Notes: a model not told the origin generated them from the sequence alone. Positions 1 through 19,882 are shown, numbered from the stretch's first letter. The stretch: 64,000 nt of DNA from Desulfovibrio sp. (GCA_031272715.1 JAISTH010000079.1:2805-66804), one strand, 5' to 3'. Translations and numbers: made by a program.

Positions 1-232
1 TGCGCACGCAGACGGCGGGACATCGGACGCACTTGTCCAGCCCGAGACATCGGCCCTTGTTGTAGGCCAGTTCCGGCTGGGGACGCTGGGATTCGGGATT
101 GCTGCACCAGCGGCAGGAGAGGGCGCACCCCTTGAGGAACACGAGGGTCCGTATGCCGGGGCCGTCGTGGATGGAGTACTTCTGGATGTTGAACACGGTG
201 CCGGCGTGGCGGCGGTCGTCGGTCTCTTCCAT
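1..232 (-). CDS. islB: Glycyl-radical enzyme activating enzyme (radical SAM), IslB/IseH-like; partial, runs off the window's left edge
   Basis: Manual translation from ATG at 232: [49 protein letters not shown], with the HDGPGIRT and CxxxCxxC GRE-activase motifs, followed by the start of a ferredoxin-like Cys cluster. Lies directly downstream of the GRE gene. Confidence 0.93.
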
Positions 233-356
233 GTCCGGCGTTCCCCCGGGGTTTCTATGACAGCGCCCCGGCGGCGGGGCCGCGGAGGGTTCGTGCGGTG
301 CGCGGCCATCGGCGAGATCGATCCGGCGGCCGTTCGCGGATAGCTCAAGAAAGCGC

Positions 357-393
357 GCCGCGCCGGCGCTCCCCCCCGGAGCCCCGGCGCGGC
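357..393 (-). other. GC-rich stem-loop between islA and islB
   Basis: GCCGCGCCGGCGCTCC-CCCCC-GGAGCCCCGGCGCGGC near-perfect inverted repeat just after the islA stop; no U-tract. Confidence 0.55.
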
Positions 394-402
394 CAGGCCG
401 CA

Positions 403-2898
403 TCAGAGCGCACCGTGCTCCGTGCGGGCTATCAGGTCGTTCTGCAGGTCCGGGGACAGATCCACGAAGTAGGCGCTGTACCCGGCGATGCGCACGATGA
501 GGTTCCGGTACTTCCGCGGATCCTTCTGGGCCGCCAGCAGAGTTTCGCGGCTGATGACGTTGAACTGGACGTGCCACAGCTTCAGGTCGCAGAAGGTCCG
601 GATGAAGGCCACCAGCTTCTCCGTGCCCTGGTCACCCTCAAGGCACTTCGGGGTGAACTTGACGTTGAGCATCCGCGCGGCCCGCGCCCGGTATCCCATG
701 TTCTTCGTGTTGAAGTTGGAGAGCATGACGGCGGTGGGCCCGTTCACGTCGGCCCCATGGGAGGCGGAGGAACCGTCCGACAGGGGGAACCATTCCGTGC
801 GGCCGTTGGGGGTGGCGGACACCACCTTGCCGAAGGGCACGTGGGAGGTGAAGGGCACGTAACGGACATCGTTGTGGATGCCCAGATCCTTCATGGAGTA
901 CTTGTCGCCGTACTCCACGGATATCCTGTCGATGTCGCGGCCGATGGCGTCGGCGTAAGGATCGTTGTTGCCGTAGCAGGGGGCGGTGCGCAGGAGGGCC
1001 TTGACGTCCTCGTGCCCCTCGAAGTTGGCGTCGATGGCCGCGAGGAGTTCGTCCATCGTCAGCCGCCGGTCCTCGTAGACCAGCTTCTTCACCGCCGCCA
1101 GGGAGTCCACCACGGTGCCCAGCCCCATGTACTCGAAGTACCCGAAGTCCAGTCCCTCCGGAATGTCCGGCTGGTGCAGGTCGATGCAGTGCTTCATGCA
1201 CAGGTCGTGGATGGCCGACCCCATGGGCTGCGCGAAATGCCGCGCCCGCAGGTCGATGATGATGCGCTGCTGGATGAAGGCGGCCTTCATGAAGAGCAGG
1301 TGCTGCTGCACGTAGGCGTCCCAGAACTGCTCCCAGGTCGCGAAGGAGCGGGGATCCCCGGTTTCGACCCCGAGGACCCGGTCCCCGTACTTCTTCATCC
1401 TGCCGTTGCGCAGCACCATTTCCACGGCCGCGGCGAAGTTGATGTACGCGCCTCCGGAGGTGTAGGTGTCCCGGTTGGGCATGCGGGCCTCGGTGCATCC
1501 GGAGACGGCGTAGTCCAGGGCCTCCTCGAAGGTCGCCCCCTTGGACACGTACAGGGGGACCACTTCCTCGTCGTTGATGAGCTTGGGGAAGCCGGACCCG
1601 TACTTGATCGTCTCGGCCACGTCCCACAGGTAGCGTTCGGGGGCGCGGGAATGGATGCGGGCGGCGAGATCGGGGTAGTGCAGGGGGAATTCCCGCTTGG
1701 ACTTGAGGAAGAGGTAGGTGAGGTCGTTGGAGGCATCGCGGCCGTCGGGGGTCTGCCCGCCGACGGTGACGGCCTCCCAGTGGGCGTAGCCCTCGTTGAA
1801 GGCGCCTCCCGTGGGGGAGATGTACATGTCGATGAATTCCGCCATGCCCACCCACATGCACTCAAGAAGCTCGATGGTCTTGGCGTCGGTGAGGGTGCCG
1901 TCCTCCTTCCCTTTCCTGTAGTAGGGGTAGAGGTACTGGTCCATCCGGCCGTTGGAGATGGTGGTGCCGGTCTTCTGCTCGAGGCGCGAGAACATCTGGA
2001 CGAACCACTGGGACTGGCAGGCCTCGTAGAAGTCCCTGGCGGGCAGTGCGGGCACACGCTCGGCGTTCTCGGCCATGCGCAGGAGTTCGCTCTTGCGCGC
2101 GGGATCGTACTCGATTCCGGCCATTTCCCGGGCCAGGGCCGCGTGGCGTCGCGCCCAGAGGACTATGGCCTCGCTGACGATGATCACCGCCTCGAGGAAG
2201 GGGCGCTTCCTGCAGTAGTCACCGGCGCTCAGGGGGTCCAGGGCGTCCAGCTTCTCCTGCGCCTCCCTGCGGATGTCGTCGAAGCCGCGGCGCAGGACCT
2301 TCTCGTAGTCGTGGACCCACTGGATGGAGGAGCGGAAGGAGGCCGTCTCGTTCACGATGAACCGGGAGACCAGGCCTTCGGGGTCGTCATAGGTGAGCTT
2401 GTGGATCTCGGGAGGCAGGGCGGCGTTGAGGGCCTCGTGGAAGGTCTTGCCCTTCCAGTAGGGGGCGATCTCCTCAACGACCCGTTTCGCGTCCTCCGGG
2501 GTGATGGTGGCCGGGGACGTGGCGCGTGTCGGCAGGTCCCGCACGGCGATGTCCAGGAAGTCCCCGTCCAGTTCCGGATAGAGGATGCCGTAGCGGCCGT
2601 CGCACCCGGCGCGGCCCAGCAGGAGCTGGTCCTGCTGGACGTGGACGGTGATGTTCTCGGCGATGTGCCTAAGCGCCTTCGCCCAGCGCAGCACGAGGGG
2701 CTGGCCTTCGGTCTCGCGCATGGACTGGGTGAAATAGAGGGCGCGTTCGATGTCGATGCGGGGCTTCTGCCCCTCGAAGCGCTCGAGCAGCCGGAACACG
2801 CGGGCGTGGCTCTTGCGGTGCCGGTCCTCCTTGCCGGCCATGGCATCGTACAGGCGCCGTTCCTGGGGTGACAGACAGTCGCAGGGCATCGTATCCAT
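403..2898 (-). CDS. islA: Glycyl radical enzyme, isethionate sulfite-lyase (IslA/IseG) type, 831 aa
   Basis: RBS GGAGG before ATG 2898. Has the glycyl loop RIAGYSAYF and Cys loop SGCTE. Motifs [24 protein letters not shown] and [10 protein letters not shown] match my recollection of Bilophila/Desulfovibrio IslA, including the sulfonate-binding Arg/Gln/Arg. Confidence 0.9.
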
Positions 2899-3059
2899 GT
2901 ATCGTTTCCTCCCGTGCCCCCGGCCCGTCCACCCGGGAGGGGCGGACGGCGGGGAGACAAGTCGATCTTCGAGACGGCCGCCGGGCATGGCGGCGGGACG
3001 CGGATGCGTCCCGGGCCCGTCCGGGTCCTAACGACCGGGCGGACGCCAGGGCGGGTGAA

Positions 3060-3074
3060 GCATACACCGTGCCA
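3060..3074 (-). promoter_or_regulatory. sigma54 (-24/-12) promoter for islAB
   Basis: Minus strand reads TGGCAC-GGTGT-ATGC, with correct GG-N10-GC spacing, ~160 bp upstream of islA. Confidence 0.75.
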
Positions 3075-3158
3075 GAGCGTCGGAATCGGCCGTGGACGGG
3101 ACAGCGCCAGCGTCCATCGGACACGGACGATGCGCGAACGAGACGGCCCCGCCGGATC

Positions 3159-3342
3159 GTTGCAATTCTGCAACAACCGGGAATCGTTCCTGATTGTTTG
3201 TCGCAGTTTTGCATCATCGCAAAGTCCACCGTTTTCGTATACTTTCCCCGCACGACAGGCAACCCGACATGCCCTCCGCAACGCCCTCCCCCGCGCGTCC
3301 CGCGAGGGACCGGGCCGCCGAGGCCTGTCGCAATTCTGCGAC
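3159..3342. promoter_or_regulatory. Three palindromic candidate enhancer (UAS) sites
   Basis: GTTGCAATTCTGCAAC (3159-3174), GTCGCAGTTTTGCATC (3200-3215) and GTCGCAATTCTGCGAC (3327-3342) lie between the two divergent sigma54 promoters. Confidence 0.7.
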
Positions 3343-3438
3343 TCACTCGTGCCGGCCGATGGCACCGGACCCGCCGCGCGCGGCCGCTGGGCGCCACCGG
3401 CGCAGTCCCGACGCCGGGACGTCCCCACATCCCGGCCA

Positions 3439-3454
3439 TGGCACAATTCGTGCT
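3439..3454 (+). promoter_or_regulatory. sigma54 (-24/-12) promoter for the adh-TRAP-BMC operon
   Basis: TGGCAC-AATTC-GTGCT with GG-N10-GC spacing, ~60 bp upstream of the GTG start. Confidence 0.75.
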
Positions 3455-3511
3455 TCGGGTCCACAGGCACGACAGGGTCGCTCCCCCCCCCTACCCATCC
3501 AGGAGTTCCCC

Positions 3512-4663
3512 GTGTACACGACCTTCCAGACGCCAGGCCGCATCATCCACGGCGAAGGCTGCATCGAATCCCTCGCCTCGGAAGTCGAACGGCTGGGGTG
3601 CGGCCGCGTCCTCATCGTCACGGACCCCGGCATCGTCGAGTGCGGCGCCCACCGCCTCGCCGAGGCGACCCTCGCCAAGGCGGGCATCCCCTACGCCCTC
3701 TGCGCCGACGTGGAGTCCGATCCATCCCCTGCCTGCGTCGAACGCTGCGCAAAGGCGTTCAAGGATTTCTCCCCGGACGTCATCGTCGGCCTCGGCGGCG
3801 GCAGTTCCATGGACGTGGCGAAGGCCGTGGCCCTCGTCGCCGCCCACGGCACCCCCGCCCAGCGGTTCTTCGGCATCGAACTGGTCCCCTCCCCGTGCCC
3901 GCCCACCATCCTCGTCCCCACCACCGCGGGCACGGCCAGCGAGACCACATCCATCACGGTGCTCCTCGACCCCGAGACCCAGTCCAAGAAAGGCATCGTC
4001 AGCTCCCACCTCTTCGCGAAGACCGTCATCCTGGACCCACTCCTCACGCTGAGCCTGCCGCCCTTCTGGACCGCCACCACCGGCATCGACGCCCTCGTCC
4101 ACGCCATAGAGTCCTACGTCAACCTGGGGGCCACGCCGATCACCGAAGGCATGTGCCTGCAGGCGATGCGGCTCATCGTCCCCAACATCCGCAAGGCATA
4201 CGCCAACGGCGGGAACCGCGAGGCCAGGGCGGCCATGCTCTATGGCGCGTCCCTCGCCGGCATGGGCTTCTCCAACACCCAGAACGGCATCATCCACGCC
4301 ATCGGACACGCCGTCCTCGCCTCCCACCACCTGCCCCACGGACTCCTCATGGCGGCCGCGAGTCCCATGGGCATGGCATTCAACGCACTGGCCGCCCCGG
4401 AAAAGTTCGCGACCATCGCGGGCATCCTCGGCGTCGACTGTTCCCGCGGCAACGTGAACGACCTCGCACGCCAGGCCTCGGAGGCGATGAAACGCCTGCT
4501 CATGGATCTCGACATCGCTCCCGGACTTGCCGCCCACGGCGTCCTCCCGGAGGAGATCCCCGGCATCGCCGAACGGGCCGTGGCGGATGCGCGCCTCATG
4601 GCGAGGAACCCCAGACGCGCCACGGTCGGGGAAGTGGAAGCCCTGCTGCACAGGCATTTCTGA
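3512..4663 (+). CDS. Iron-containing (group III) alcohol dehydrogenase
   Basis: RBS AGGAG then GTG at 3512. Motifs GGGSSMD, PTTAGT, DALVHAIE, IIHAIGH and HG (metal ligands). Confidence 0.9.
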   Translation: MYTTFQTPGRIIHGEGCIESLASEVERLGCGRVLIVTDPGIVECGAHRLAEATLAKAGIPYALCADVESDPSPACVERCAKAFKDFSPDVIVGLGGGSSMDVAKAVALVAAHGTPAQRFFGIELVPSPCPPTILVPTTAGTASETTSITVLLDPETQSKKGIVSSHLFAKTVILDPLLTLSLPPFWTATTGIDALVHAIESYVNLGATPITEGMCLQAMRLIVPNIRKAYANGGNREARAAMLYGASLAGMGFSNTQNGIIHAIGHAVLASHHLPHGLLMAAASPMGMAFNALAAPEKFATIAGILGVDCSRGNVNDLARQASEAMKRLLMDLDIAPGLAAHGVLPEEIPGIAERAVADARLMARNPRRATVGEVEALLHRHF

Positions 4664-4899
4664 AGCGACCCTGCCCCTGTCTGAGGCAGGGGCGCCCCCC
4701 CCCAGCGGATCGACACGGACGGATCCGCACCGGATACGCCCTCCGGGAACGTCGCGGCGAAGTCGCGACAAGCCACAAGGAGGTGAACGACGCGCAAAGG
4801 AAATGGGCCAGACCCGGCCGGATACCGCCGCCCCCCTGCGGGAGTCGGCCGACGCCGGCCGCAACCGTTCACGGCACACCCCAAGCAAAGGACAACCGT

Positions 4900-6018
4900 A
4901 TGAAGAAACTGCTGATCGCCTTCATGTGCGCCGCACTGCTGGCCGTCACCGGCACAGCCGCACAGGCCGCGCAGACCTACGAGCTGAAGATCCAGACGTC
5001 CCTGGCCACCTCCAGCATGTATTTCAGGACCCTTGAACGCTTCAAGAAGAACCTCGAGGCGCTGACCAGCGGCCAGATCAAGGTCGAACTGCTGGCCGAG
5101 GGCGCCGTGGTCAAAGGTTTCGAAGTCTTCGAGGCCGTCAGCGAGGGCATCATCACCGGCGGCATGTCCTGGACCCACTGGGCCTCGGGCAAGCATCCCG
5201 CCGGCGTGCTCTTCTCCGCCCCCGTCGGGGGCCTCGGCCTCGGCCTCGACCAGATAAGCGTCCTGTCCTGGATGTGGGACGGGGACGGCCTCGCCCTGCT
5301 GAACGAGTACTATCAGCAAATGGTGAAGGTGAAGCTGCGGGCCTATCCCGTCCTGCCCATGGGACCGGAGTGCTTCGGATGGTTCCACAAGAAGTACACG
5401 TCCTTCGAGGAGATCAACAAGCTCACCTTCCGGGCCCCGCCCGGAGTGCCCACCGAGGTCTTCAAGGCCATGGGCATGCCCGTCGTCTCCATGCCCGGCG
5501 GCGAGATCATCCCCGCCGCCCAGCGCGGCGCCATCGACGCCGCCGAATGGATCGCCCCGGGAGAGGATCTGCCCATGGGCTTCGCCGAAGTCTGGAAGCA
5601 CTACTACCTGCAGGGCCTCCACCAGGCCATCTCCATCGGCGACGTCTACATCAACATCGAATGGTACGAAAAGCTCCCCGCCAACCTGAAGGCGGCCGTC
5701 GAAGTGGCCATGAAGGCCTGCCTCGCCGACCAGATGCTGGCCAACATCAGCGTCAACTCCAAGGCGCTCCAGACCATGGTCCGGGACAAGGGGGTCATCA
5801 TCGAGGAAACCCCCAAGGAATACTATGCGAAATTCATGCAGGCTACCAAGACCGTGCTGGAAAAGTACATGAAGGATCCCTTCTTCAAGAAGGTCTACGA
5901 CTCGGAACTTGCTTGGGCCAAGATGACGGTCCCCTTCCAGGTCCGTTCCAACGGCCTCTACTACCAGATCGGCAAGACCGCCATGGATGAAGGCGTCATC
6001 ACGGACTACCAGAAGTAG
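4900..6018 (+). CDS. dctP: TRAP transporter solute-binding protein, DctP/TakP-like
   Basis: Signal peptide MKKLLIAF...AAQA. Motifs GWF, FRAPPG, MPGGEIIPAAQRGAIDAAEW typical of TakP/FcbT1-like SBPs. Followed by dctQ and dctM. Confidence 0.9.
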   Translation: MKKLLIAFMCAALLAVTGTAAQAAQTYELKIQTSLATSSMYFRTLERFKKNLEALTSGQIKVELLAEGAVVKGFEVFEAVSEGIITGGMSWTHWASGKHPAGVLFSAPVGGLGLGLDQISVLSWMWDGDGLALLNEYYQQMVKVKLRAYPVLPMGPECFGWFHKKYTSFEEINKLTFRAPPGVPTEVFKAMGMPVVSMPGGEIIPAAQRGAIDAAEWIAPGEDLPMGFAEVWKHYYLQGLHQAISIGDVYINIEWYEKLPANLKAAVEVAMKACLADQMLANISVNSKALQTMVRDKGVIIEETPKEYYAKFMQATKTVLEKYMKDPFFKKVYDSELAWAKMTVPFQVRSNGLYYQIGKTAMDEGVITDYQK

Positions 6019-6024
6019 CACAGC

Positions 6025-6057
6025 CGCCGGGAGAGGGGACGATCCCCTCTCCCGGCG
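6025..6057 (+). other. Stem-loop after the SBP gene (mRNA stabiliser or partial terminator)
   Basis: CGCCGGGAGAGGGGA-CGA-TCCCCTCTCCCGGCG, a perfect 15-bp stem right after the dctP stop. Confidence 0.65.
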
Positions 6058-6090
6058 CCTCTCGTCCACACTCGCGCCAGGGAGGTCCCC

Positions 6091-6678
6091 ATGGCTTCGG
6101 ATGTCGCGGAAAGGCCGGATCCTCGTGTCCCTTCCTCCGTCAGCAAATGCATCTGCATGCTGGACGGCCTGAACGTCGGGGTGGGAAAGATCGCCGCATG
6201 GCTCGCCATCCCCATGATGCTGAGCCTCATCATCGAGGTGGTCATGCGCTACGCCTTCCGGCAGCCCACCATCTGGGCCATGGACATGGCCGTCATCCTC
6301 TACGGCATCCACTTCATGCTGGGGTCGGCCTACTGCCTCAGGGAAGGGCAGCACATCCGCACGGACTTCTTCTATCACAACTGGTCCGTGCGCAAGAAGG
6401 CCGCAGCGGACCTCTTCAACTACATCGTCCTCTTCTTCCCGGCCCACATCGTGTTCTTCTACGTGAGCTGCGGCTATTTCTACAAGTCTTTCGCCCACAA
6501 CGAAACCGCCGTCACGAGTCCTTGGGCCCCCATCATATGGCCTGCAAAACTGGCCATCCCGGTATGCGTGTTCCTGACACTCCTCCAGGGCGTCTCGGAG
6601 GTGCTCAAGTGCATCTACCGATACAAGACCGGCGAGGATCTCTGGCCCGTCTCCGAAATCGCAGAAGCTGAAGACTAA
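6091..6678 (+). CDS. dctQ: TRAP transporter small permease
   Basis: Four hydrophobic segments; EVVMRYAF..PTIWA and GQHIRTD motifs. Confidence 0.9.
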   Translation: MASDVAERPDPRVPSSVSKCICMLDGLNVGVGKIAAWLAIPMMLSLIIEVVMRYAFRQPTIWAMDMAVILYGIHFMLGSAYCLREGQHIRTDFFYHNWSVRKKAAADLFNYIVLFFPAHIVFFYVSCGYFYKSFAHNETAVTSPWAPIIWPAKLAIPVCVFLTLLQGVSEVLKCIYRYKTGEDLWPVSEIAEAED

Positions 6679-6715
6679 ACCTGCGGCCACCCACGCATCA
6701 CGAGGAGCACGCCCC

Positions 6716-8041
6716 ATGGACATGTCCTACAACGAACTGCTCGCCCTGCTTTCCCTGGCCGGGATGTTCGGCGCCTTCTGCCTGGGCTTCCCCATCTCCT
6801 ACACGATGATCTTCAGCGGACTGATCTTCGGCTACCTCGGCATCGGCAAGATCGTCTTCTACCTGCTGACGATGCAGTTCTACCAGGTGATGAGCGACCC
6901 CATCATGGGAGCCATCCCCTTCTTCCTGCTCATGGGATACCTGCTGGAGGGGGCGGGGCTCATGGACAGGCTCTTCAAGTCCTTCCAGCTGCTCTTCGCC
7001 AAGCTCCCCGGATCCCTCTACAGCGCCATCGTCCTCACCGGCACCATCTTCGCCGCCGCCACCGGCATCGTGGGATCGTCGGTGAACCTGCTGTGCATCA
7101 TGTCGGAACCGTCCATGCGGGCCAGCGGCTACAACATCCGCATGGGAGCGGGATGCATCGCCGCCGCGGGAACCCTCGGCATCCTCATCCCCCCCAGCAT
7201 CATGCTGGTGGTGCTCGGCCCCATCATGGGCCTGCCCATCACGGACCTCTTCGCCGCAGCCATCCTGCCGGGCCTGCTGCTGGCCTCCATCTACATCGTC
7301 TACTCCCTGGTCAAGTGCGCCATCTGGCCCGAATACGGCCCGCCCCTGCCCAAGGACATGTGGCCCACGAGCTACCTGACCGTCTTCAAGGAAATGGTCG
7401 TGGGGGTCTTCCCCCTGCTGGTGCTCATCTTCGCCACCCTCGGCAGCATCCTCATGGGCATCGCCACACCCACGGAGGCCTCCGCCTGCGGCGCCTTCGG
7501 CGCCCTGATCCTCGTGATCGCCTACGGCAAGTTCACGTGGAAGAACCTGTCCAAGGCCCTCCACAGCACCATCCTGCTCTCGGCGATGATCCTCGTGATG
7601 ATCGCCTCCTGCAATTTCTTCGGGTCGGTGTTCTCCCGCCTCGGCGGGGCGACATGGCTCTCCAACGCCCTGCTGGCCGTCAACGCCCCGCCCATGCTCA
7701 TGCTCATCCTCATCATGACCATCATCTTCTTCATGGGCTGGGCCATGGAGTGGATCCCCATCGTCCTCATCCTGATCCCCCTGCTCATGCCCGTGGTGGA
7801 CGCCATGGGCTACGACAAGCTGTGGTACTGCCTCGTGGTGGCCGTCACCCTGCAGACCTCCTGGCTGTCCCCGCCCGTGGCCCTCTCCTGCTACTTCATC
7901 AAGGGGAGCCTGCCCCACTGGAAGCTGGTGGACATCTACAAGGGCATGTTCCAGTACATCTTCTGCCAGCTGCTGGGGCTGGCGCTGATCATCCTCTTCC
8001 CCGCCATCGTGACCTTCCTGCCCCAGTGGTTCAAATCCTGA
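6716..8041 (+). CDS. dctM: TRAP transporter large permease
   Basis: AIPFFLLMG, GTLGILIPPSI, TPTEA and SPPVA motifs; highly hydrophobic. Confidence 0.93.
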   Translation: MDMSYNELLALLSLAGMFGAFCLGFPISYTMIFSGLIFGYLGIGKIVFYLLTMQFYQVMSDPIMGAIPFFLLMGYLLEGAGLMDRLFKSFQLLFAKLPGSLYSAIVLTGTIFAAATGIVGSSVNLLCIMSEPSMRASGYNIRMGAGCIAAAGTLGILIPPSIMLVVLGPIMGLPITDLFAAAILPGLLLASIYIVYSLVKCAIWPEYGPPLPKDMWPTSYLTVFKEMVVGVFPLLVLIFATLGSILMGIATPTEASACGAFGALILVIAYGKFTWKNLSKALHSTILLSAMILVMIASCNFFGSVFSRLGGATWLSNALLAVNAPPMLMLILIMTIIFFMGWAMEWIPIVLILIPLLMPVVDAMGYDKLWYCLVVAVTLQTSWLSPPVALSCYFIKGSLPHWKLVDIYKGMFQYIFCQLLGLALIILFPAIVTFLPQWFKS

Positions 8042-8054
8042 GGGGCGACGGGAG

Positions 8055-8846: not shown

Positions 8847-8946
8847 GGCGACCAGGCGCATCCCGAGGCGACCTCCGTCGCGCCGGCGATGCCACGGTCG
8901 GAACGGACCCCGGACATCACCGAAGCCCCCAACGACGAGGTTCCCA

Positions 8947-9876
8947 ATGAAGATCATCGACTTCCGCTTCCGCCCCAACACGGCCGAGGTCCTGGACGGC
9001 ATCAGGAACAGTTCCATGTTCAAGGCCACCTGCGAGGCCATCCACTTCGAGCGGCGCGTCCCCCAGACCCTCCCCCAGATCGTCGCCGACCTGGATCGCC
9101 GGGGCGTCGAACTCTCGGTGATCACGGGCAGGGACTGCGAGACGACATACGGGTTCCCCGCCAACAACGGCAGCGTCCTCTCCTTCGTGAAGGCCTATCC
9201 CGACAAGTTCGTGGGCTTCTGGGGGATAGACCCCCACAAGGGCATGAACGCCGTGCGGGAGATCGTCCATGCCGTCGAGACCGACGGCATGCGGGGCATC
9301 GCCATCGACCCCTATCTCGCCCACATCCCGCCCCACGAGGCGAGGTACTACCCCCTCTACGCGAAGTGCTGCGAACTCGGGATCCCCGTCTTCGTCACCA
9401 CCGCGCCCCCGCCCCAGGTCCCCAGGGCCGTGATGGACTACGTGGATCCCCGCCACGTGGACATCGTCGCCCGGGACTTCCCGGAACTCACGATCATCAT
9501 GAGCCACGGGGGCTACCCCTTCGTGAACGAGGCCGTCTTCGCCTGCATGCGCAACGCCAACGTGTACATGGACCTCTCCGAATACGAACTCGCCCCCATG
9601 GCGGACGTCTACGTCCAGGCCCTCAACACGGCCATCGGCGACAAGGTCGTCTTCGCCAGCGCCCATCCCTTCGTGGAACAGGCCGAGGCCATCGACATCT
9701 ATCGGAAGCTGAAGCTCACCGAGGAGGTCCGCCGCAAGGTCATGTACGAGAACGCCCGGCGCATCCTCGGCCTCGCGAAGGACGAGGCGCCGAAAACCCG
9801 AAGGGTGGCCGGCCTCTCCCAGGAAATGCCCGTGCCCTATCTTCCCTTCTGTCCGGCCGGGAACCGGCCCCGCTGA
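8947..9876 (+). CDS. Amidohydrolase_2 family protein
   Basis: RBS GAGG before ATG 8947. Motifs YPDKFVGF, YPLYAKCCELGIPV, FPELTIIMSHGGYP, NVYMDLS, DKVVFAS and RKVMYENARRIL. Confidence 0.85.
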   Translation: MKIIDFRFRPNTAEVLDGIRNSSMFKATCEAIHFERRVPQTLPQIVADLDRRGVELSVITGRDCETTYGFPANNGSVLSFVKAYPDKFVGFWGIDPHKGMNAVREIVHAVETDGMRGIAIDPYLAHIPPHEARYYPLYAKCCELGIPVFVTTAPPPQVPRAVMDYVDPRHVDIVARDFPELTIIMSHGGYPFVNEAVFACMRNANVYMDLSEYELAPMADVYVQALNTAIGDKVVFASAHPFVEQAEAIDIYRKLKLTEEVRRKVMYENARRILGLAKDEAPKTRRVAGLSQEMPVPYLPFCPAGNRPR

Positions 9877-9879
9877 TCC

Positions 9880-11235
9880 ATGCCCTCCCCTCTCGCCAGG
9901 GACGCCTTCCTGAAGGCCGTGCGGGACGCCGGGGTCGTCGGCGAAGGCGGCGCGGGCTTCCCCGCCCACGCCAAATACGCAGGGACCGCTGACACGGTCA
10001 TCGCCAACGCCTGCGAATGCGAACCCCTGCTCCACACCGACCGCCATCACATGGAGCATTCCGCGGAACAGGCGATGCTGGCCCTGAAACAGGTGGCGGC
10101 GGCCTGCGGCGCCAGGCGGGTCGTCTTCGCCATGAAACGCAAGCACGCGGATCTGGTCCCGGCCATCGAGGCGTCCTGCAGGGCGCATGGGACGGAACTC
10201 GCGCTGCTTGACGACTTCTACCCCGCAGGGGACGAGCAGGTGCTGGTGCGGGAGGTGACGGGCCGCTCGGTTCCGGCCCTGGGGATTCCCCTGGCCGCCG
10301 GATGCCTCGTCGCCAACGTGGGGACGCTGGTGAGCGCCTATGGGGCGATGAGAAACGTCCCCGTGACCCACAAGACCCTGACGGTGACGGGAGAGGTGCG
10401 GCAACCCGGCATCCTCAGAGCGCCCGTGGGCACGCCCATGGCCGAATGCCTCGCTGCGGCCGGAGGCGCCGCCACGCCGGACCCGGTCTTCATCCTCGGC
10501 GGTCCCATGATGGGACGCCTCGTGGACGGCCCGGAAGCCCTCGCCGCCGAGCACGTCGCCAAGACCGACGGCGGGCTCGTGGTCCTGCCACGAGGGCACG
10601 CCCTGCACCGCAACGCCGCCCAGCGTGTGGAACACATGCGCCGCAGGGCCGCCTGCGCCTGCATCCAGTGCCGATTCTGCTCCGATCTCTGCCCCCGGGC
10701 GCTGCTGGGGCAGCCCTTCGAGACCCACAGGGTCATGAAGGCCTTCGGCATGGGGATGGAACTCGCCGGGGAGGCGGGGAGGATGGCGATGCTGTGCAGC
10801 GGTTGCGGCGTCTGCGAACACTACGCCTGTCCCATGGGACTCTCCCCCCGCCGCATCAACCTCGCCGTCCGCAAGGCCATGTCCGGGTCCAAGACGCCCT
10901 ACGGCGGACCCACCGCCCCCGACGAAGCGCGGACCGCCAACAGGGACGTGCGCAAGGTGCCTCTGGGGCGCCTCGCCATGCGGCTGGACGTCCACAGGTA
11001 CATGGACCTCGCGACGCCTTTCCTTGGCACCCTCGAGCCTTCCCGGGTGCGCATCCCCCTGAACCGCCACATCGGCGCCCCGGCCGTCCCCTGCATCGCC
11101 CCGGGGCAGCGGGTCGAGGAGGGGGCATGCATCGGGGACATCCCGGAAGGGGCCCTCGGAGCGAGGGTCCACGCCAGTCTCGCCGGCACCGTGATCGCCG
11201 TGGACGACGGAGTGACCATCAGGAGGCAGCCATGA
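9880..11235 (+). CDS. pduS: PduS-like flavin/Fe-S oxidoreductase (RnfC-like; SLBB and 2x[4Fe-4S])
   Basis: AGVVGEGGAGFP, NACECEP, GGPMMG, CIQCRFCSDLCP, CSGCGVCEHYACP and a C-terminal HIGAPA..VHAS domain; sits next to pduT. Confidence 0.87.
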   Translation: MPSPLARDAFLKAVRDAGVVGEGGAGFPAHAKYAGTADTVIANACECEPLLHTDRHHMEHSAEQAMLALKQVAAACGARRVVFAMKRKHADLVPAIEASCRAHGTELALLDDFYPAGDEQVLVREVTGRSVPALGIPLAAGCLVANVGTLVSAYGAMRNVPVTHKTLTVTGEVRQPGILRAPVGTPMAECLAAAGGAATPDPVFILGGPMMGRLVDGPEALAAEHVAKTDGGLVVLPRGHALHRNAAQRVEHMRRRAACACIQCRFCSDLCPRALLGQPFETHRVMKAFGMGMELAGEAGRMAMLCSGCGVCEHYACPMGLSPRRINLAVRKAMSGSKTPYGGPTAPDEARTANRDVRKVPLGRLAMRLDVHRYMDLATPFLGTLEPSRVRIPLNRHIGAPAVPCIAPGQRVEEGACIGDIPEGALGARVHASLAGTVIAVDDGVTIRRQP

Positions 11236-11789
11236 GGGAAGACTCCCGTGCGGTGGGGATGCTGGAATTCACGAGCATCGCGGCGGGGATGGACGCCTCC
11301 GACCGGATGGTCAAGGCCGCCTCCATCGAGCCCGTCTTCTTCAAGACGGTCTGTCCCGGCAAGTTCCTCGCCTGCGTGGCCGGGGACGTGGCGGCCGTCG
11401 AGGCGTCCATGGAGGCGGGAAGGGCGGGGGCGGGGCCGCTTGTCGCGGACTGGTTCCTGCTCCCGAACATCCATCCCGACGTGACGACGGCGCTGGGGGG
11501 CGTCGGCATGGACATCCCGGTGGAGGCGCTGGGGATACTGGAGACGTACTCGGCGGCATCCATCGTGGCCGCCGCGGACGCGGCGGTTAAGGCCGCGAGG
11601 GTCCGGCTGCTGGACATCCGTCTGGCCATGGGACTTGGCGGCAAGGGATACACGCTCTTCACCGGCGACGTCGCCGCGGTGGAGGCATCGGTTGAGGCGG
11701 GAGCCCGGAGTGCCGCGGAAGCGGGGCTGCTGGTGGGCAAGGTGGTCATCCCGAGGCCCGCCGAGGCCTTCTGCAGGCAAGTGCTCTGA
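11232..11789 (+). CDS. pduT: BMC-T shell protein, PduT-like (tandem BMC domain)
   Basis: AVGMLEFTSIAAG...KTVCPGKF (conserved pore Cys)...ALGILETYS...GLGGKG...VIPRP. ATG overlaps the pduS stop. Confidence 0.9.
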   Translation: MREDSRAVGMLEFTSIAAGMDASDRMVKAASIEPVFFKTVCPGKFLACVAGDVAAVEASMEAGRAGAGPLVADWFLLPNIHPDVTTALGGVGMDIPVEALGILETYSAASIVAAADAAVKAARVRLLDIRLAMGLGGKGYTLFTGDVAAVEASVEAGARSAAEAGLLVGKVVIPRPAEAFCRQVL

Positions 11790-11829
11790 CGCCTGCGGGC
11801 GCCGGACGGGACGAGGACAGGGAGCGAAA

Positions 11830-12990
11830 ATGGCAGCGGGGACTGGCGGACAGGGCTTGTCGACGGGTGCGTCCGGAAGGCGCGCCGTCACCGCCGAGGA
11901 CGTGCGCGACGCCCACCTGCGGGGACTGCGGGAGATTCCCGTCCCCCAAGGGGTCCTCGTGACCCCCCTGGCCCGGGACGTCGCCAAGGAGCACGGCGTG
12001 CTCCTCGCGCAACCCCTCCCCGGGAGCCCCATGGAACCGCCGTCCCCTCACACCGCCAGGCCCCCCTTGCCGCCCCTTCCCGGACAGGTGACGCTCCGCG
12101 CGGGTCAGCCGCTTCCCGATGGCGCATCCCCGCCAAGGACCGCCGACACGTCCACGGCAACCGCTCGCGGCAAAGCCAAGCGCCCCGGCACCCAGCCGCC
12201 CCCCAACCCCAACCGGCATCACCCCCCTGGAGGCCGCATGCTGTTCCTCACCGAAGACGACATACGCCAACGCGGCATCCCCGAGGGCGGAGAACTCGTC
12301 CTCTGCGCCACGGAGCGGCTGACCCCCTCCGCCAGCAGCTACGCCACCCAGCTGCAGCTCCGGGTGGTCGAGGCCGAAGGCCCCCAGTGCCCCGAACGGC
12401 AGGCGCAGACATGCCCGGAGGATGCCTCCAAGGCCCCCTCCGATCCCTCCGAGACGGGCCTGACCCACCTCGATGCCGCCACCATGGTGCCGAAGACCCA
12501 TCCACGCATCGAGGCCCGCGGCAAGCTCGACACCCTGGTATCGGAAATCGTCCTGGTCCAGACCCTCTTCGACCCCAAACGAAAACTCCCCGCCCTGCTC
12601 CTCGAATGCCTCGCCGACCTCAAGGAATGGGCCTTCCAGACCCTCGCCGCGGAAGTCTCCGGCAGTCTCCTCCCGCGCCAGACCATGGCCGGCATGGACC
12701 CCGAAACCCTCCGGGCGGTCTCCCGCAACCCCGGCAGATACCTGAACGCGGAGCATCTGGCCCCGGACGCCTCCATGGGGACGAATCTCGCCCTCCTGAA
12801 CCGGCTGCGCGCCCTCGTGCGGGAGACGGAACTCGCAACGGCAAGGGCGGCCCTCACCCGGGGCGACATACAGCAGTCCCTGAACAGGCTCTCCAGCGCC
12901 GTCTACGTCCTCATGCTCCTGACGCACCTCGCCGAGAGCGGCGCCCCGCTCCCCACATCCGGCATCGCCGCCGACGGGGGCAAGGACTGA
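11830..12990 (+). CDS. eutT: EutT-like cob(I)alamin adenosyltransferase (core 12238-12990) with an in-frame N-terminal extension from 11830
   Basis: Core motifs [46 protein letters not shown] and LNRLSSAVY resemble EutT. Both ATG 11830 (GGAG) and ATG 12238 (GGAGG) have an RBS. Confidence 0.75.
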
Positions 12991-12994
12991 CATC

Positions 12995-14011
12995 ATGGGC
13001 GTCATGGAACGCTGCAAGGCCAAGTGCCGAGGACAAGGGGCCATCGTCGTCTTCGCCGAGGGCGAGGACCGCCGGGTGGTCGAGGCGGCCGTCGCCCTGA
13101 ACCGGGAAGGACTGGTCCACCCTCTGCTCATGGGCAGAGCTTCCATCCTGCTGGATCTGCTCAACCAGACGGCCCGCCTCGGCGAACGCCTCGACGCCCT
13201 CGACCCCGCCGACCCGCACCTGCTCGCCATGAACGCCGAGGCGCTCCTCGCCCTCGCCGCCGAACGAGGCAAACCCATGAACGCCGACGAGGCCCGCTCC
13301 GCCGCGCGCACCCCCCTCACGGCCGCCTGCCTTCTGGTCAGGCAGGGGAAAGCCACCTGCGGCGTCGCCGGGAACCTCTCCCCCACCGCCGACGTGCTGC
13401 GCGCGGGCCTGCGGATTCTCGGCACCACCCGGGACTTGCGGACGGTGTCCGGATTCTTCCTCATGCTGGCCCCGGAGGAACGGCAGGTCTACGTCTTCGC
13501 CGACGCCGGGGTCGTTCCCGAACCCACCGCGGAACAGCTCGCCGACATCGCCATCGCCTCGGCACGGCAGTGCCGGCGCCTGCTGGACGCAACGCCCCGT
13601 GTGGCGATGCTGTCCTTCTCCACCAAGGGCAGCGCCGACCACCCCCGGGTGGACCACGTCCGGCGGGCCCTGGCCCTCGTGCGGGAACGCGCGCCGGAAC
13701 TCGCCGTCGACGGCGAACTCCAGCTCGACGCGGCCGTCTGCCCGGACGTCGCCCGCCTGAAAGGCGTCGACGGCCCAGTGCAGGGAGACGCCAACGTCCT
13801 CGTCTTCCCGGGGCTGGAAGCGGGGAACATCGGCTACAAGATCGCCCAGCGCCTGGGAGGCTACACGGCCCTCGGGCCGCTCCTGCAGGGCCTTGCCGGG
13901 GGATGGCACGACCTCTCCCGGGGATGCTCGGCGGGAGACGTCCACGACATCGCCCTGCTGGGGGCGACGCTGGCCCTTGCGGAACAGGGGGAACAGGCCG
14001 GGGCGGCCTGA
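12995..14011 (+). CDS. eutD: Phosphotransacetylase, EutD/Pta type
   Basis: [45 protein letters not shown] and DLSRGCS. Confidence 0.92.
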
Positions 14012-14077
14012 CGCCCTCCCCAACCTGCGGGCGAAACGCCCGCCAACGCCAACAACCGAACCACAAGGAGACGGGAC

Positions 14078-14356
14078 ATGGATGCACTCGGCATGATCGA
14101 AACGCGGGGACTCGTCGCCCTCATCGAGGCGGCCGACGCCATGGTGAAGGCGGCCCGGGTCGTCCTCATCGCCTACGAGCAGATCGGGGGCGGCTACGTG
14201 ACGGCCATCGTGAGAGGCGACGTCGCGGCCTGCAAGGCGGCGACGGACGCCGGAGTGAACGCGGTGCAGCGCCTTGGCGGCGAGCTCGTGGCCGTGCACG
14301 TGATCCCCAGGCCCCACGCGGACCTGGAGGAGGTCTTCCCCATCCGGAAGAAGTAG
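14078..14356 (+). CDS. eutM: BMC-H hexameric shell protein (EutM/PduA-like)
   Basis: ALGMIETRG...AADAMVKAA...GGGYVT..RGDVAA..HVIPRPH. Confidence 0.95.
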
Positions 14357-14472
14357 CCGGCCGACATCGGTCGAACGCATAGATGCGGACCTGGCGCCCA
14401 TGCGGGCCGAAGTGCCCGGTTCCCCGCCTTCCAGGCGCGGGGCGCCACAGATTCGTCTTCCGGGAGGACGCC

Positions 14473-14760
14473 ATGGAACTCGCGAAGGTCGTGGGGCAGG
14501 TGGTGGCAACCGCCCGCGCCCCCGGACTGCCCAGCAACACCCTCCTGCTGGTGCGGTTCGTGGACGAAAAGGGGGAACCCTGCGGAGGCTGCCACGTGGC
14601 GGCCGATCCGGTGGGGGCCGGCGAGGGGGAGTGGGTGCTGACCGTGCGGGGCAGTTCCGCGCGGTGCGCCATCGACATGGACGCCCCGCTGGATCTGGCG
14701 GTGGTCGCCATCGTCGACAGCGTCGGATCCGCTGCCGAGACGCTCTACAGAAAGAACTGA
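14473..14760 (+). CDS. eutN: BMC-P pentameric vertex protein (EutN/CcmL)
   Basis: RBS GGAGG; MELAKVVGQVVAT...VAADPVGAGEGEWVL..GSSAR..D..VVAIVD. Confidence 0.95.
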   Translation: MELAKVVGQVVATARAPGLPSNTLLLVRFVDEKGEPCGGCHVAADPVGAGEGEWVLTVRGSSARCAIDMDAPLDLAVVAIVDSVGSAAETLYRKN

Positions 14761-14949
14761 CGAACGGCCGCGGCGCCCCTGGATCGCGGCGGCGACGCCG
14801 CGGTCCGGGCATGCGCCCCTTGACGCGCAACGGGAACGCCGACGAAACCCGCGGCGCGCCCGAACGCAGGACGACGACGCTCCGGGCCGCCCCACGGCCC
14901 CGGAGACGCGCCCGTCAACCGTCCCGGCCCCATGCCGGCGGAGACAGAC

Positions 14950-16368
14950 ATGGAAATGCAGGAACAGGACGTGGAACGCATCGTGAGCGAGGTGCTGAAA
15001 CGCCTCGGCACCCCCGGCAGGGAAACGCCGGTCGCGGCCCAGGACGACCTCGGCCTCTTCGCGTCGCTTGACGATGCCGTGGAGGCCGCCTCGCGCGCCT
15101 ACCGGAAGGTGTCCACCCTCAGGGTGCGCCGGGAGGTGATCGCGGCCATCCGCAAGGCGGGCAAGGAACACGCCCAGTCCCTGGCGGAACTCGCCGTCCG
15201 GGAGACGGGCATGGGACGGGTCGCGGACAAGCTGGCGAAGAACATCCTGCAGGCCGAGTCCACCCCGGGACCCGAAGCCCTGGTCCCCAGGGCCATGTCC
15301 GGGGACGCCGGTCTGGCCCTGGAGGAGAACGCGCCCTGGGGCGTCGTCGCCTCGGTCACCCCCTCCACCAATCCAGCCGCCACGGTCGTCAACAACGCCA
15401 TCAGCATGATCTCCGCCGGCAACGCCGTCGTCTTCGCCCCCCATCCGAACGCGAAGCAGACGTCCCAGACCGCCATGCAGACGCTGAACAAGGCCATCCG
15501 GGACGCGACGGGCATAGAGCACCTGCTGTGCGCGGTCCGGGAACCCTCCATCGAGACGGCGCAACGCCTCTTCGCCCACCCCGGCGTGAAACTGCTGGTG
15601 GTCACGGGCGGGGAAGGGGTGGTCGCCGCCGCCCGCAAGCACGCCACCATGCGCCTCATCGCCGCCGGCGCCGGCAATCCCCCGACGGTCGTGGACGAAA
15701 CCGCCGACATCCCCCGGGCCGCCAAGGGCATCCTCGCCGGGGCGAGCTTCGACAACAACATCATCTGCGCCGACGAGAAGGAGATCATCGCCGTGGACGC
15801 CGTCGCGGACCGGCTCAAACGGGAACTGGCCGCGCAGGGAGCCTGCGAGATCACCCTCCCCCAGGCGGAGACCATCGCCAGGTTCGCCCTCCGGGACCAC
15901 CCCGGGCCATCGCCCGCCGCCAACCCCAAATGGGTGGGCAGGGACGCCTCCCGCATCGCCCGCGAGGCGGACATCCACGTCCCCGACACATGCCGGATGC
16001 TCTTCGTGGACGTCGGCCGGGACATAGACCACCCCTTCGCCCGGGTGGAACAGATGATGCCGGTGCTGCCGCTCCTGCGGGCCCGGAACGTCGACGAGGC
16101 CATCGAATGGGCCCTGATCCTGGAACGGGGGCTCTCCCACACGGCGGGGATCCACTCGAGGAACATCGACAACATGCACGCCATGGCCCTCGCCATGAAC
16201 ACCAGCCTCTTCGTCAAGAACGGCCCCCACGTCGCGGCCCTTGGCGTCGGCGGGGAGGGCTGGACGTCGATGACCATCTCGACCCCGACAGGGGAAGGGG
16301 TCACCTCGGCGCGCACCTTCGTGCGCATCAGGCGGTGCGTCCTCGTCGACAGCTTCCGCATCGTCTGA
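14950..16368 (+). CDS. eutE: CoA-acylating aldehyde dehydrogenase (EutE/PduP) with N-terminal encapsulation peptide
   Basis: N-terminal amphipathic helix DVERIVSEVLKRL; PSTNP, VTGG, AGAGNPP, SFDNNIICADEK and TPTGEG. Confidence 0.93.
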   Translation: MEMQEQDVERIVSEVLKRLGTPGRETPVAAQDDLGLFASLDDAVEAASRAYRKVSTLRVRREVIAAIRKAGKEHAQSLAELAVRETGMGRVADKLAKNILQAESTPGPEALVPRAMSGDAGLALEENAPWGVVASVTPSTNPAATVVNNAISMISAGNAVVFAPHPNAKQTSQTAMQTLNKAIRDATGIEHLLCAVREPSIETAQRLFAHPGVKLLVVTGGEGVVAAARKHATMRLIAAGAGNPPTVVDETADIPRAAKGILAGASFDNNIICADEKEIIAVDAVADRLKRELAAQGACEITLPQAETIARFALRDHPGPSPAANPKWVGRDASRIAREADIHVPDTCRMLFVDVGRDIDHPFARVEQMMPVLPLLRARNVDEAIEWALILERGLSHTAGIHSRNIDNMHAMALAMNTSLFVKNGPHVAALGVGGEGWTSMTISTPTGEGVTSARTFVRIRRCVLVDSFRIV

Positions 16369-16373
16369 GGGAC

Positions 16374-17123
16374 ATGCTGGCCTTCCTCGCCCTCGCGAGC
16401 CTTCTCGTCGGCTTGATCATAGGCGCGACCGGGATCGGGGGCGTGATCCTGATCCCGCTGCTCATGGCCGCCGGGGGACTCACTACGCACCAGGCCATGG
16501 CGACGGCGCTGGCCAGCTTCCTCTTCTGCGGGATCGCTTCCACCTGGGCCTTCCAGCGCCACGGAAGCTTCCTCTGGCGGGAGACGGCGCCGGTGATCGC
16601 CGGATGCCTCTGCACGAGCCACGTCGGGGCATACATCGCCACCATGGCCAGCGCCCGCTTTCTCGACCTGACGCTTGCGGCCATCATCCTCCTCTCGAGC
16701 GCCTACAACCTCGTGACCCCGCAAGGCTTCAACCTGCCGACGCGTCTGGGGAGACGAGGCAACCTCGCCCTGCTCTTCGGCGCGGGATGCCTCACCGGCT
16801 TCCTGTGCGGGATGACGGGGGCGGGAGGCGGCATCGTCTCGACGCCGCTCCTCTTCCTCTGCGGCTACCAGACCCTGCCGGTCATCGCGACGGCGCAGAT
16901 CCTGCAAATCTTCGTGTCCCTTGCGGGTTCCCCGGTGAATCTCGCCCACGGATACATAGACCTGCACCTCGCGGGCTGGGTCTCCATCTTCGAGGTCGCC
17001 GGGGTGCTTCTGGGGAGCGGGCTCGCCCACCGGTTGCCAGTGAGGACCTTGCGCGTGACGGCGGTGACGCTGTGCCTGCTCACGAGCGCGGCACTGGCCG
17101 TGAAGGCCGTCTTCTGGGGGTGA
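16374..17123 (+). CDS. TauE/SafE (TSUP) family sulfite/sulfonate transporter
   Basis: Two repeats of G.TG.GGG...P, about 8 TM helices, 249 aa; last gene of the operon. Confidence 0.85.
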   Translation: MLAFLALASLLVGLIIGATGIGGVILIPLLMAAGGLTTHQAMATALASFLFCGIASTWAFQRHGSFLWRETAPVIAGCLCTSHVGAYIATMASARFLDLTLAAIILLSSAYNLVTPQGFNLPTRLGRRGNLALLFGAGCLTGFLCGMTGAGGGIVSTPLLFLCGYQTLPVIATAQILQIFVSLAGSPVNLAHGYIDLHLAGWVSIFEVAGVLLGSGLAHRLPVRTLRVTAVTLCLLTSAALAVKAVFWG

Positions 17124-17142
17124 CGCCGAACGGGAACGCACA

Positions 17143-17164
17143 GGGCCCCCTCGCGGGGCCCTTT
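17143..17164 (+). terminator. Probable intrinsic terminator of the BMC operon
   Basis: GGGCCCC-CTCGC-GGGGCCC followed by TTT. Confidence 0.55.
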
Positions 17165-19700: not shown

Positions 19701-19882
19701 GCATCCTCCGGCGCCGAAGGCCGCCGCTTCACCGCCGGGGCCTCATGTGGTAGGATTCCAACCGTCCGAAGACGTCCCCGTGGGACGACGGGCGATTGTC
19801 ACCGGAGTGTAGAAAACACGCCCGAAATTGTCCAGAAGCCGCTTGGGCGGCGCTTCCATACAGACATCACGAAGGACAGAAC

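Follow-up and report, generated by a model that had tools for sequence, protein, structure and literature searches.

Bacterial microcompartment (BMC) loci of the GRMguf type were reportedly named by Zarzycki in 2015, and the IslAB microcompartment of Bilophila wadsworthia 3.1.6 is said to have been covered by Peck et al. in 2019 as well. The underlying chemistry, cleavage of isethionate to acetaldehyde and sulfite, is established for the glycyl radical enzymes (GREs) IslA and IseG. In B. wadsworthia, induction, polyhedral bodies and co-fractionation have been demonstrated (Burrichter 2021, PMC8667426), and the gene cluster HMPREF0179_00636-00649 (Table 1 of the same paper) encodes a PAS regulator, IslB, IslA, an aldehyde dehydrogenase, EutN and a second 'EutN', continuing with a phosphotransacetylase, EutT, EutQ, a BMC protein, PduT, PduS (annotated RnfC) and a predicted amidohydrolase. 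Sutter 2021 counts 18 GRMguf loci, and its supplement holds a dedicated hidden Markov model (HMM) for the PF04909 amidohydrolase (HMM04909amidhy_1_grmguf) together with a second, 32-position HMM of the same name, which we take to describe the amidohydrolase extension. GRMguf has also been called by BMC Caller in cockroach-gut Desulfovibrionaceae loci (PMC10266427). Here we describe a locus at one end of a 64,000-nucleotide stretch of Desulfovibrio sp. DNA (GCA_031272715.1, JAISTH010000079.1:2805-66804; hereafter the window), which we read, with a probability of about 85%, as a sigma54-controlled, two-armed locus of the GRMguf class for the respiration of isethionate, probably derived from taurine, in a termite-gut Desulfovibrio.

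The window has a GC content of ~68% with abundant spurious open frames, and because of this high GC, genes were picked by their third-position GC and then checked against Pfam and NCBIfam. The left arm of the locus, on the minus strand, consists of islA and the start of islB, and the right arm, on the plus strand, of 14 genes (3512-17123), the divergent arms being separated by a control region of 613 bp. The remainder of islB and a PAS-sigma54 activator with a helix-turn-helix domain lie leftwards of the window on the same contig (C67:1-2900, ~2.8 kb) of an assembly that is 80% complete. A preliminary description of positions 1-17164, made by a model from the bare sequence, had listed the genes of both arms, and every gene that it named was found, in the same order.

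Against solved structures, the signature enzyme reaches 1510 bits with B. wadsworthia IslA (7KQ3), 1438 bits with D. vulgaris IseG (5YMR) and 1215 bits with HpsG (6LON). In contrast, paralogues from other genomes, 58-65% identical to it, score 1420 and 1333 bits to HpsG versus 1073-1231 bits to IslA/IseG. Aligned with 7KQ3, it keeps R189/Q193, C468-x-E470, R678/V680/F682 and the Gly loop (in the motifs FRSSIQW, GCTE, DVRYVPF and RIAGYSA), the catalytic and sulfonate-clamp residues being those named in PMC13450708. The enzyme falls in the IslA/IseG clade and has an adjacent activase gene directly downstream, islB, which is 64-84% identical to the gene adjoining islA in relatives. With these scores, the shell genes, EutE and the phosphotransacetylase Pta all present, the proposal of an IslA-based sulfonate microcompartment locus stands.

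Synteny was assessed by tblastn of the window proteins against loci retrieved with PduS. Two Bilophila metagenome-assembled genomes (MAGs; L026, L027) and other Desulfovibrionaceae MAGs share a common order, amidohydrolase-PduS-PduT-(BMC-H2, EutQ)-EutT-Pta-BMC-H-BMC-P-aldehyde dehydrogenase (ALDH), and the core genes of the window are 50-88% identical to those of L026 and L027. A metabolosome core is present in the form of an acylating aldehyde dehydrogenase (636 bits) and a phosphotransacylase (321 bits), PF00936 and PF03319 shell genes lie within the locus, and a PF04909 amidohydrolase with a C-terminal extension adjoins PduS and PduT. The EutQ cupin and second BMC-H of the Bilophila type are both missing between pduT and eutT, which makes this a sub-variant but leaves its place in GRMguf intact. 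Likeness to the Bilophila cluster extends over IslA, IslB, the PAS-sigma54 regulator, the acylating ALDH, Pta, the EutT-like protein, PduS/PduT, BMC-H, BMC-P and the PF04909 amidohydrolase with its C-terminal tail, and includes the internal order amidohydrolase-PduS-PduT-...-EutT-Pta-H-P-ALDH. The preliminary description had seen a distinct, undescribed architecture, a view to be given up if the locus type were already catalogued and characterised, and for the core this is the case (Burrichter 2021; the Sutter 2021 HMM; synteny with the Bilophila MAGs). The features on which that view relied are all common to Bilophila-type loci and so do not set this one apart: the transacetylase of EutD rather than PduL type, the amidohydrolase, and PduS, PduT and EutT as a trio. 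Pta, for example, shares 50-63% identity with its counterparts in Bilophila-type loci and termite MAGs.

What then remains is a trimmed and rearranged sub-variant of GRMguf that other public termite-gut MAGs carry as well. In the Bilophila cluster islAB lies downstream of the aldehyde dehydrogenase, whereas here it points away from the other genes; the window lacks the second BMC-H and EutQ's cupin domain, the EutQ N-module being fused to EutT, and no satellite shell genes were found; and, unlike the Bilophila cluster, the window operon contains a sarD-like gene, a TakP-type TRAP (tripartite ATP-independent periplasmic) transporter with an exported partner, and tauE, with ald and tpa placed on another contig of the window genome. 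Identities to the Bilophila proteins are only 42-84%. Three modest novelties can be named: the minimal shell with its EutQ-N::EutT fusion, the TakP-type importer set and the relocated SarD-like gene. The isethionate loci of Desulfovibrio and Oleidesulfovibrio that have no compartment (Xing et al. 2019, PMC6453916) resemble the window locus in IslA, IslB, a TRAP importer and sigma54 control, and the relatives of this kind that were examined also have an amidohydrolase-like gene and often tauE; however, they lack a shell as well as EutE, Pta and PduS/T, carry an amidohydrolase-like protein without a tail, and use a binding protein of the IseP clade (8T9T). The tauE gene stands at the identical operon end in three further loci (L023, L024 and L031), and beside the amidohydrolase gene in a non-BMC locus (L021).

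Two termite-gut Desulfovibrio MAGs, JAISOT01 (Iy174_bin55, G001) and JAISTW01 (Md513_bin41, G087), share with the window the three-gene shell, the gene order as far as tauE and the EutQ-N::EutT fusion, on contigs that are uncharacterised and unannotated; no homologue of the iron-containing alcohol dehydrogenase (Fe-ADH) of the window was found in either locus. G001 has the TakP-type TRAP transporter and exported protein as in the window, whereas in G087 a TauA/SsuA-like ATP-binding cassette (ABC) importer replaces the TRAP transporter in the same slot. Among 111 genomes in the genus, BMC domains occur in 32, in most of them with ~10 hits, and the three-domain pattern is confined to G001, G087 and the window's own genome (G000). 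A larger microcompartment locus of another kind, with ~10 BMC domains, is present in roughly a quarter of the genus and was not found in the window assembly; in a spot-checked case (G022, C41:449116-461428) the BMC domains lie beside a CutC-like GRE that is 34-35% identical to IslA.

Both arms appear to be under common control. Scanning both strands of the whole 64 kb for TGGCA[CT]-N5-[TGA]TGC[ATC] returned only two sigma54 consensus matches, one facing each arm, and each is accompanied by a perfect palindrome (Table 1). The promoter layout of the islAB side is also found in L023, L015 and L017, the palindrome GTYGCA-N4-TGCRAC recurs upstream of isl genes in L023, L026 (the Bilophila MAG, before islA), L028 and L031, and the combined promoter and palindrome design is also present in G087, which argues that the adjacent activator would co-activate both arms.

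The importer was described beforehand as TakP-type, and the nearest solved structures bear this out: DctP scores ~100 bits to TTHA0766 (2ZZV) and TakP (2HZK), and only 33 bits to the isethionate binder 8T9T, which places it outside the IseP clade. The characterised binders of D. piger and O. alaskensis group together in a single cluster, which is associated with IslAB loci (PMC13335735). DctM shares 72-90% identity with the copies linked to IslA in G001, G009 and G015, as against 28-30% with the DctM of most IslA loci of the genus, and the TakP-type TRAP transporter recurs together with the exported protein in the IslA loci of these same three genomes. The exported protein always directly follows a TakP-type dctM and has no Pfam or NCBIfam match; its 18 homologues are all hypothetical, those with a named source coming from Desulfovibrio MAGs. 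Its structure model (predicted local distance difference test score 83.5) yields weak, PsbP/Mog1/DcrB-like matches (Z <= 6.4). None of these leads to a function: the best Foldseek match in the PDB was PA1624 (E = 6e-4, template modelling score (TM) ~0.25), VIA-align reached Z = 6.4 at best (DUF4309, PsbP, Mog1, DcrB), and the ESM Atlas returned only 'hypothetical protein' clusters (TM 0.61-0.67). We can say only that the protein accompanies the TakP-type TRAP system in the periplasm; together with the amidohydrolase-like protein, it makes up the two genes rightly listed beforehand as having no assigned function.

These importer genes bear on a competing explanation, in which the locus is an undescribed subtype and the imported substrate is a precursor (sulfoacetate, sulfolactate or taurine) that is converted to isethionate before IslA. 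We regard this as unlikely: a TRAP binder in the TakP/lactate-binding clade rather than the IseP clade (following the sequence similarity network described in PMC13335735), a SarD-like reductase as first gene of the operon and an exported partner of no assigned function directly after dctM would all suit it, but the microcompartment core is the catalogued GRMguf set, and the locus has no CoA ligase, SauS-type enzyme, aminotransferase or sulfolactate enzyme, with the SauS model reaching only 169 bits on EutE (cut-off 600). Moreover, tpa and ald lie elsewhere under their own activator, the same TakP-type TRAP transporter occurs in IslA loci without any reductase (G001, G015), and the sister species has a TauA/SsuA-like ABC importer in the same slot.

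The Fe-ADH would connect the GRMguf locus to taurine. It scores 480.7 bits to the SarD model (NF050025), below the equivalog cut-off of 700, and 177 and 275 bits to EutG and FucO, respectively; it is 48% identical to the SarD of a Bilophila MAG, which passes the cut-off (722.5 bits). It is the only SarD-like gene in the assembly, has no N-terminal extension and is a probable sulfoacetaldehyde reductase, and we infer that it makes isethionate from taurine-derived sulfoacetaldehyde. Since the Fe-ADH is SarD-like, a precursor step ahead of IslA, as had been suggested for this locus, is plausible. Another contig of the same assembly (C49; L111:7121-11843) carries ald, a tpa-like class-III aminotransferase gene (54% identical to the tpa of a Bilophila MAG) and a divergent PAS-sigma54 activator. 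This ald-tpa cluster has no sarD, whereas the Bilophila MAG L026 has sarD beside tpa, and sarD appears to have been relocated from the taurine module into the isl operon. In L026 (902-8671 of the analysed locus; CAJUHZ010000006.1), a classical DctP, SarD (722 bits), Tpa, Ald and a sigma54 activator adjoin the amidohydrolase end of the isl locus, so that two clusters published as separate are physical neighbours there.

A similarly low probability attaches to the possibility that the Fe-ADH is the compartment's own NAD+-recycling acetaldehyde reductase, an ethanol-forming analogue of EutG/PduQ. Metabolosome loci commonly carry an Fe-ADH, the enzyme stays below the SarD equivalog cut-off, and the published Bilophila cluster has no alcohol dehydrogenase, a gap noted by its authors (PMC8667426). 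Nevertheless, SarD is by far the best of the models tried, the enzyme has no terminal targeting extension, NAD+ recycling is already supplied by PduS/PduT, the ald-tpa cluster of the genome has no sarD of its own, and the gene lies directly under the promoter, far from the shell genes, all of which favour a sulfoacetaldehyde reductase.

A search of the whole assembly for PF00936 and PF03319 found three domains of the former (one in BMC-H, two in PduT) and one of the latter, all inside the locus, and no further shell genes; the earlier count of only three shell genes is therefore right both for the locus and for the 80%-complete assembly. BMC-H is 84-88% identical to that of relatives. The start of pduT overlaps the stop codon of pduS, the PduS domain set is complete and PduT keeps its CPGK pore motif, although the PduT equivalog model is not reached (121 versus 250 bits). 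In compartments free of B12, PduS and PduT act as a relay from the NADH dehydrogenase MNdh via the Fe-S pore protein BMC-T^SE to the outside (Sutter et al. 2024, PMC11626177). The window genes resemble this relay in their adjacent, overlapping arrangement, their FMN and 2x[4Fe-4S] domains and their CP(G/S)K motif.

The EutT-like protein is a fusion. In Bilophila-type loci, the EutQ-like gene encodes an N-module of ~45 residues, then a linker and a cupin domain, while a related module opens EutT. The window, G001 and G087 have lost the cupin, and in all three the EutQ N-module with a Pro-rich linker is fused in frame to EutT; of the two modules in the fusion, N1 matches the EutQ-like N-terminus and N2 the EutT start of Bilophila-type loci. 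PF01923 is matched, while the EutT equivalog NF011595 is not reached (138 versus 226 bits, over the C-terminal half), and no Cys-rich motif was seen by eye in the translation. EutE, 69-77% identical to its relatives from BMC loci, has an N-terminal extension ahead of the catalytic domain, MEMQEQDVERIVSEVLKRLG, which, read by eye, suggests an amphipathic, encapsulation-peptide-like helix.

That this shell module is instead a decaying remnant, leaving IslA free in the cytosol without a compartment, as in most Desulfovibrio, seems to us improbable. Hexamers (H), trimers (T) and pentamers (P) together are the complete set of BMC shell building blocks, and one of each is retained. Most IslA loci of the genus have no shell genes, and by comparison with Bilophila-type loci this one has lost a second BMC-H and the cupin of EutQ, yet every gene of the locus is intact with a strong, coding-type signal in third-position GC, the reduced set is kept in three species (BMC-H 88% and EutE 77% identical), and both the tail motif of the amidohydrolase-like protein and the pore Cys of PduT are retained.

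Action of the GRE on another sulfonate, for example 2,3-dihydroxypropane-1-sulfonate in the manner of HpsG, is very improbable: the 1512-bit match to NF048011, '(2S)-3-sulfopropanediol dehydratase' (cut-off 1000), would speak for it, but this model does not discriminate, the solved structures rank IslA/IseG far above HpsG for the window enzyme and the reverse for the paralogues, and the downstream enzymes, EutE and Pta, are a C2 set. NF048011 scores the IslA of a Bilophila MAG at 1542 bits and HpsG-type paralogues at 1528-1532 bits; we rejected it as a separator of the two types and disregarded its name because it scores both alike.

Several observations weigh against our reading of the locus as a GRMguf-class system for isethionate respiration. 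DctP is unrelated to the characterised isethionate binders, and the TakP clade usually binds carboxylates. The Fe-ADH misses the SarD cut-off and could be an acetaldehyde reductase. IslA has no recognisable targeting extension that would take it into the shell. The shell set is smaller than that of Bilophila, which has a second BMC-H and, according to the Sutter 2021 supplement, satellite EutS and EutL genes; additional shell genes could be unassembled here, as the assembly is only 80% complete. Finally, a search of sequencing runs listed one DNA run with window DNA, from a termite gut metagenome that may be the sample of origin, and no RNA run.

The amidohydrolase-like protein belongs to the PF04909 fold family but not by its catalytic signature. 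The metal ligands of Amidohydro_2 are replaced, with IDFRFRP in place of the HxH that follows strand 1 and ASAHP in place of the strand-8 Asp, a replacement that is invariant in 42 homologues and also seen in 3IRS, a PDB entry that is uncharacterised. HVH and TDYP are retained in a canonical relative (P0176). A tail of ~30 residues, ending in [FIVM]P[LV]P[YF]xP[FY]xP and disordered in the structure model, is present in all eight distinct copies that precede pduS and in none of the seven complete copies from shell-less loci. The window copy is 76% identical to a Bilophila-MAG copy in an alignment (71% by tblastn) versus 61-74% (tblastn) for untailed copies of its own genus. In the non-compartment locus of G015, the amidohydrolase gene and tauE are adjacent, and in the window the pduS...eutE module stands between them, from which we would only infer that the block from the amidohydrolase gene to eutE may have moved as a unit.

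Beyond this locus, the protein follows GREs. Of 301 Desulfovibrionaceae genomes, 102 encode the amidohydrolase-like protein and 99 an IslA/HpsG-type GRE, the counts per genus being almost the same, and our reading of two coordinate tables places the two within ~10 kb of each other in most genomes, genus g74 being the exception. More diverged GREs pair with more diverged partners, and the pairing is old, as partners only 41% identical are still found in amidohydrolase-transporter-GRE cassettes, those of HpsG-type included. Two metagenome contigs (L113:870-6526 and L117:1568-7416) carry such compact cassettes, with a TRAP or major facilitator superfamily transporter and a partner of 41% identity; the GRE of L117 is of HpsG-type and is followed by a probable activase, and that of L113, truncated where the contig ends, shares 61% identity with IslA. 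At ~35% identity the association fades, as a homologue at this level (P0169) has no GRE nearby; contigs with two distant homologues (P0150, P0149) were too short to give context. The amidohydrolase-like protein is thus conserved and GRE-linked, and not specific to the window locus.

No assigned function was found for this protein, including its copy in the Bilophila isethionate locus. A complex model of PduS with the amidohydrolase-like protein, run with no controls, scored 0.00 against a mark of 0.32 and so speaks neither for nor against their contact. The metal-dependent bile salt hydrolases of two 2026 preprints, in which both amidohydrolase and isethionate are mentioned, were set aside as members of a different family (PF07969, ~945 aa, secreted). 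Our own hypothesis, which is rather doubtful, is that the protein may be an enzyme handling the products of sulfite-releasing radical lyases, and one speculative version of it would have the protein split the very stable acetaldehyde-bisulfite adduct, 1-hydroxyethanesulfonate. An Arg-x-Arg pocket would then hold the sulfonate, a conserved His would serve as base, and, where there is a shell, the tail would pack the protein beside IslA in it and possibly help to recruit IslA. Its partnership with both IslA- and HpsG-types, its missing metal ligands and a tail confined to microcompartment loci are compatible with such a role. A 436-aa metagenomic protein (P0026) scores 761 bits to the amidohydrolase-like query (78% identity over 70% of the query), compared with 711 bits for the query's own copy, which hints that part of it is duplicated or that it is a fusion or an assembly error.

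Taken together, the genes suggest the following scheme. The PAS-sigma54 activator would bind the GTYGCA-N4-TGCRAC palindromes and fire both outward promoters, and the TakP-type TRAP transporter would import a sulfonate, most likely isethionate. Taurine could feed the pathway as well, being converted by Ald and Tpa to sulfoacetaldehyde, which the SarD-like Fe-ADH would reduce to isethionate in the cytosol. IslA, activated by IslB, is predicted from its family assignment and active-site residues to split isethionate into acetaldehyde and sulfite, and this cleavage would take place within a shell made up of a single BMC-H, a single Fe-S BMC-T (PduT) and a single BMC-P. EutE would then turn acetaldehyde into acetyl-CoA, and Pta would recycle the CoA, yielding acetyl phosphate, as PduS re-oxidises NADH and passes electrons through the PduT cluster to the outside, in keeping with the published MNdh/BMC-T^SE model. 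Sulfite would exit to dissimilatory reduction, and TauE may vent any excess. The amidohydrolase-like protein, devoid of a metal site, would be packaged by its C-terminal tail for a task coupled to sulfite-releasing GREs, and the EutT-like protein would carry the shell-associated N-module of the lost EutQ.

The class itself adds little, GRMguf/IslA compartments being already catalogued and characterised, and the value of the locus is comparative. Its shell, with a single hexamer, a single Fe-S trimer and a single pentamer, would show a natural limit of trimming and is a compact candidate for a heterologous sulfonate/acetaldehyde shell that exports its own electrons. The retention of the EutQ N-module with loss of the cupin points to the module, rather than the cupin, as the part of importance to the organelle. 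The locus also connects IslA with another TRAP binding-protein family, the second and an uncharacterised one, and provides a further independent case of the amidohydrolase-like partner, which is also present in the isethionate locus of Bilophila, a producer of hydrogen sulfide in the gut. It would place microcompartment-based respiration of taurine and isethionate in termite-gut Desulfovibrio.

Table 1 Predicted features of the isethionate locus, with window positions and the evidence for each call.
Feature	Position	Strand	Evidence or remark
islB (glycyl-radical activating enzyme), N-terminal 77 codons only in window	1-232	-	Fer4_12 match, ATG at 232
islA, isethionate sulfite-lyase, 831 aa	403-2898	-	PFL-like 572 bits, Gly_radical 101 bits; start 2898, GGGAGG upstream
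sigma54-type promoter TGGCAC-N5-ATGC, facing islAB	3059-3074	-	consensus match
Palindrome GTTGCA-ATTC-TGCAAC, candidate activator (bacterial enhancer-binding protein, bEBP) site	3159-3174	.	about 85-110 bp upstream of islA promoter
Palindrome GTCGCA-ATTC-TGCGAC, candidate activator site	3327-3342	.	about 85-110 bp upstream of right-arm promoter
sigma54-type promoter TGGCAC-N5-GTGC, facing right arm	3439-3454	+	consensus match
Fe-ADH, SarD-like	3512-4663	+	best NCBIfam model SarD
DctP, TRAP solute-binding protein, TakP clade, signal peptide	4900-6018	+	PF03480
DctQ, TRAP small membrane subunit	6091-6678	+	PF04290
DctM, TRAP large membrane subunit	6716-8041	+	PF06808
Exported protein, no Pfam/NCBIfam family	8055-8846	+	position directly after dctM
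Amidohydro_2-fold protein, start MKIIDFRFRP	8947-9876	+	PF04909 at 130 bits
PduS-like flavin/Fe-S protein (MNdh)	9880-11235	+	Complex1_51K, SLBB, Fer4_17, RnfC_N
PduT-like tandem BMC-T shell protein, pore Cys motif CPGK	11232-11789	+	two PF00936 domains, 151 bits
EutT-like protein, internal alternative start 12238	11830-12990	+	PF01923 at 49 bits
Pta (Pta/EutD type phosphotransacetylase)	12995-14011	+	PF01515 at 321 bits
BMC-H hexamer shell protein	14078-14356	+	PF00936 at 102 bits
BMC-P pentamer (vertex) shell protein	14473-14760	+	PF03319 at 95 bits; ATG 14473, GGGAGGA upstream
EutE-type CoA-acylating aldehyde dehydrogenase	14932-16368	+	NF011927 at 636 bits, cut-off 403
TauE/SafE-family membrane protein (sulfite/sulfonate anion export family)	16374-17123	+	PF01925 at 124 bits

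The end coordinate chosen in the preliminary description is sensible, given that the next gene encodes an unrelated TPR/GGDEF protein on the opposite, minus strand. This gene (17352-19700) encodes a product of 782 aa that has TPR repeats at its C-terminal end and matches GGDEF only marginally and in part (23 bits versus a cut-off of 23.8; profile positions 51-137), and which may be a degenerate diguanylate cyclase-like sensor. Further along (19796-24142), genes related to oxygen or stress, in what is the genome of a strict anaerobe, encode a protein of metallo-beta-lactamase fold, another with DUF4198, and a haem catalase (622 bits); they are unrelated to the locus.

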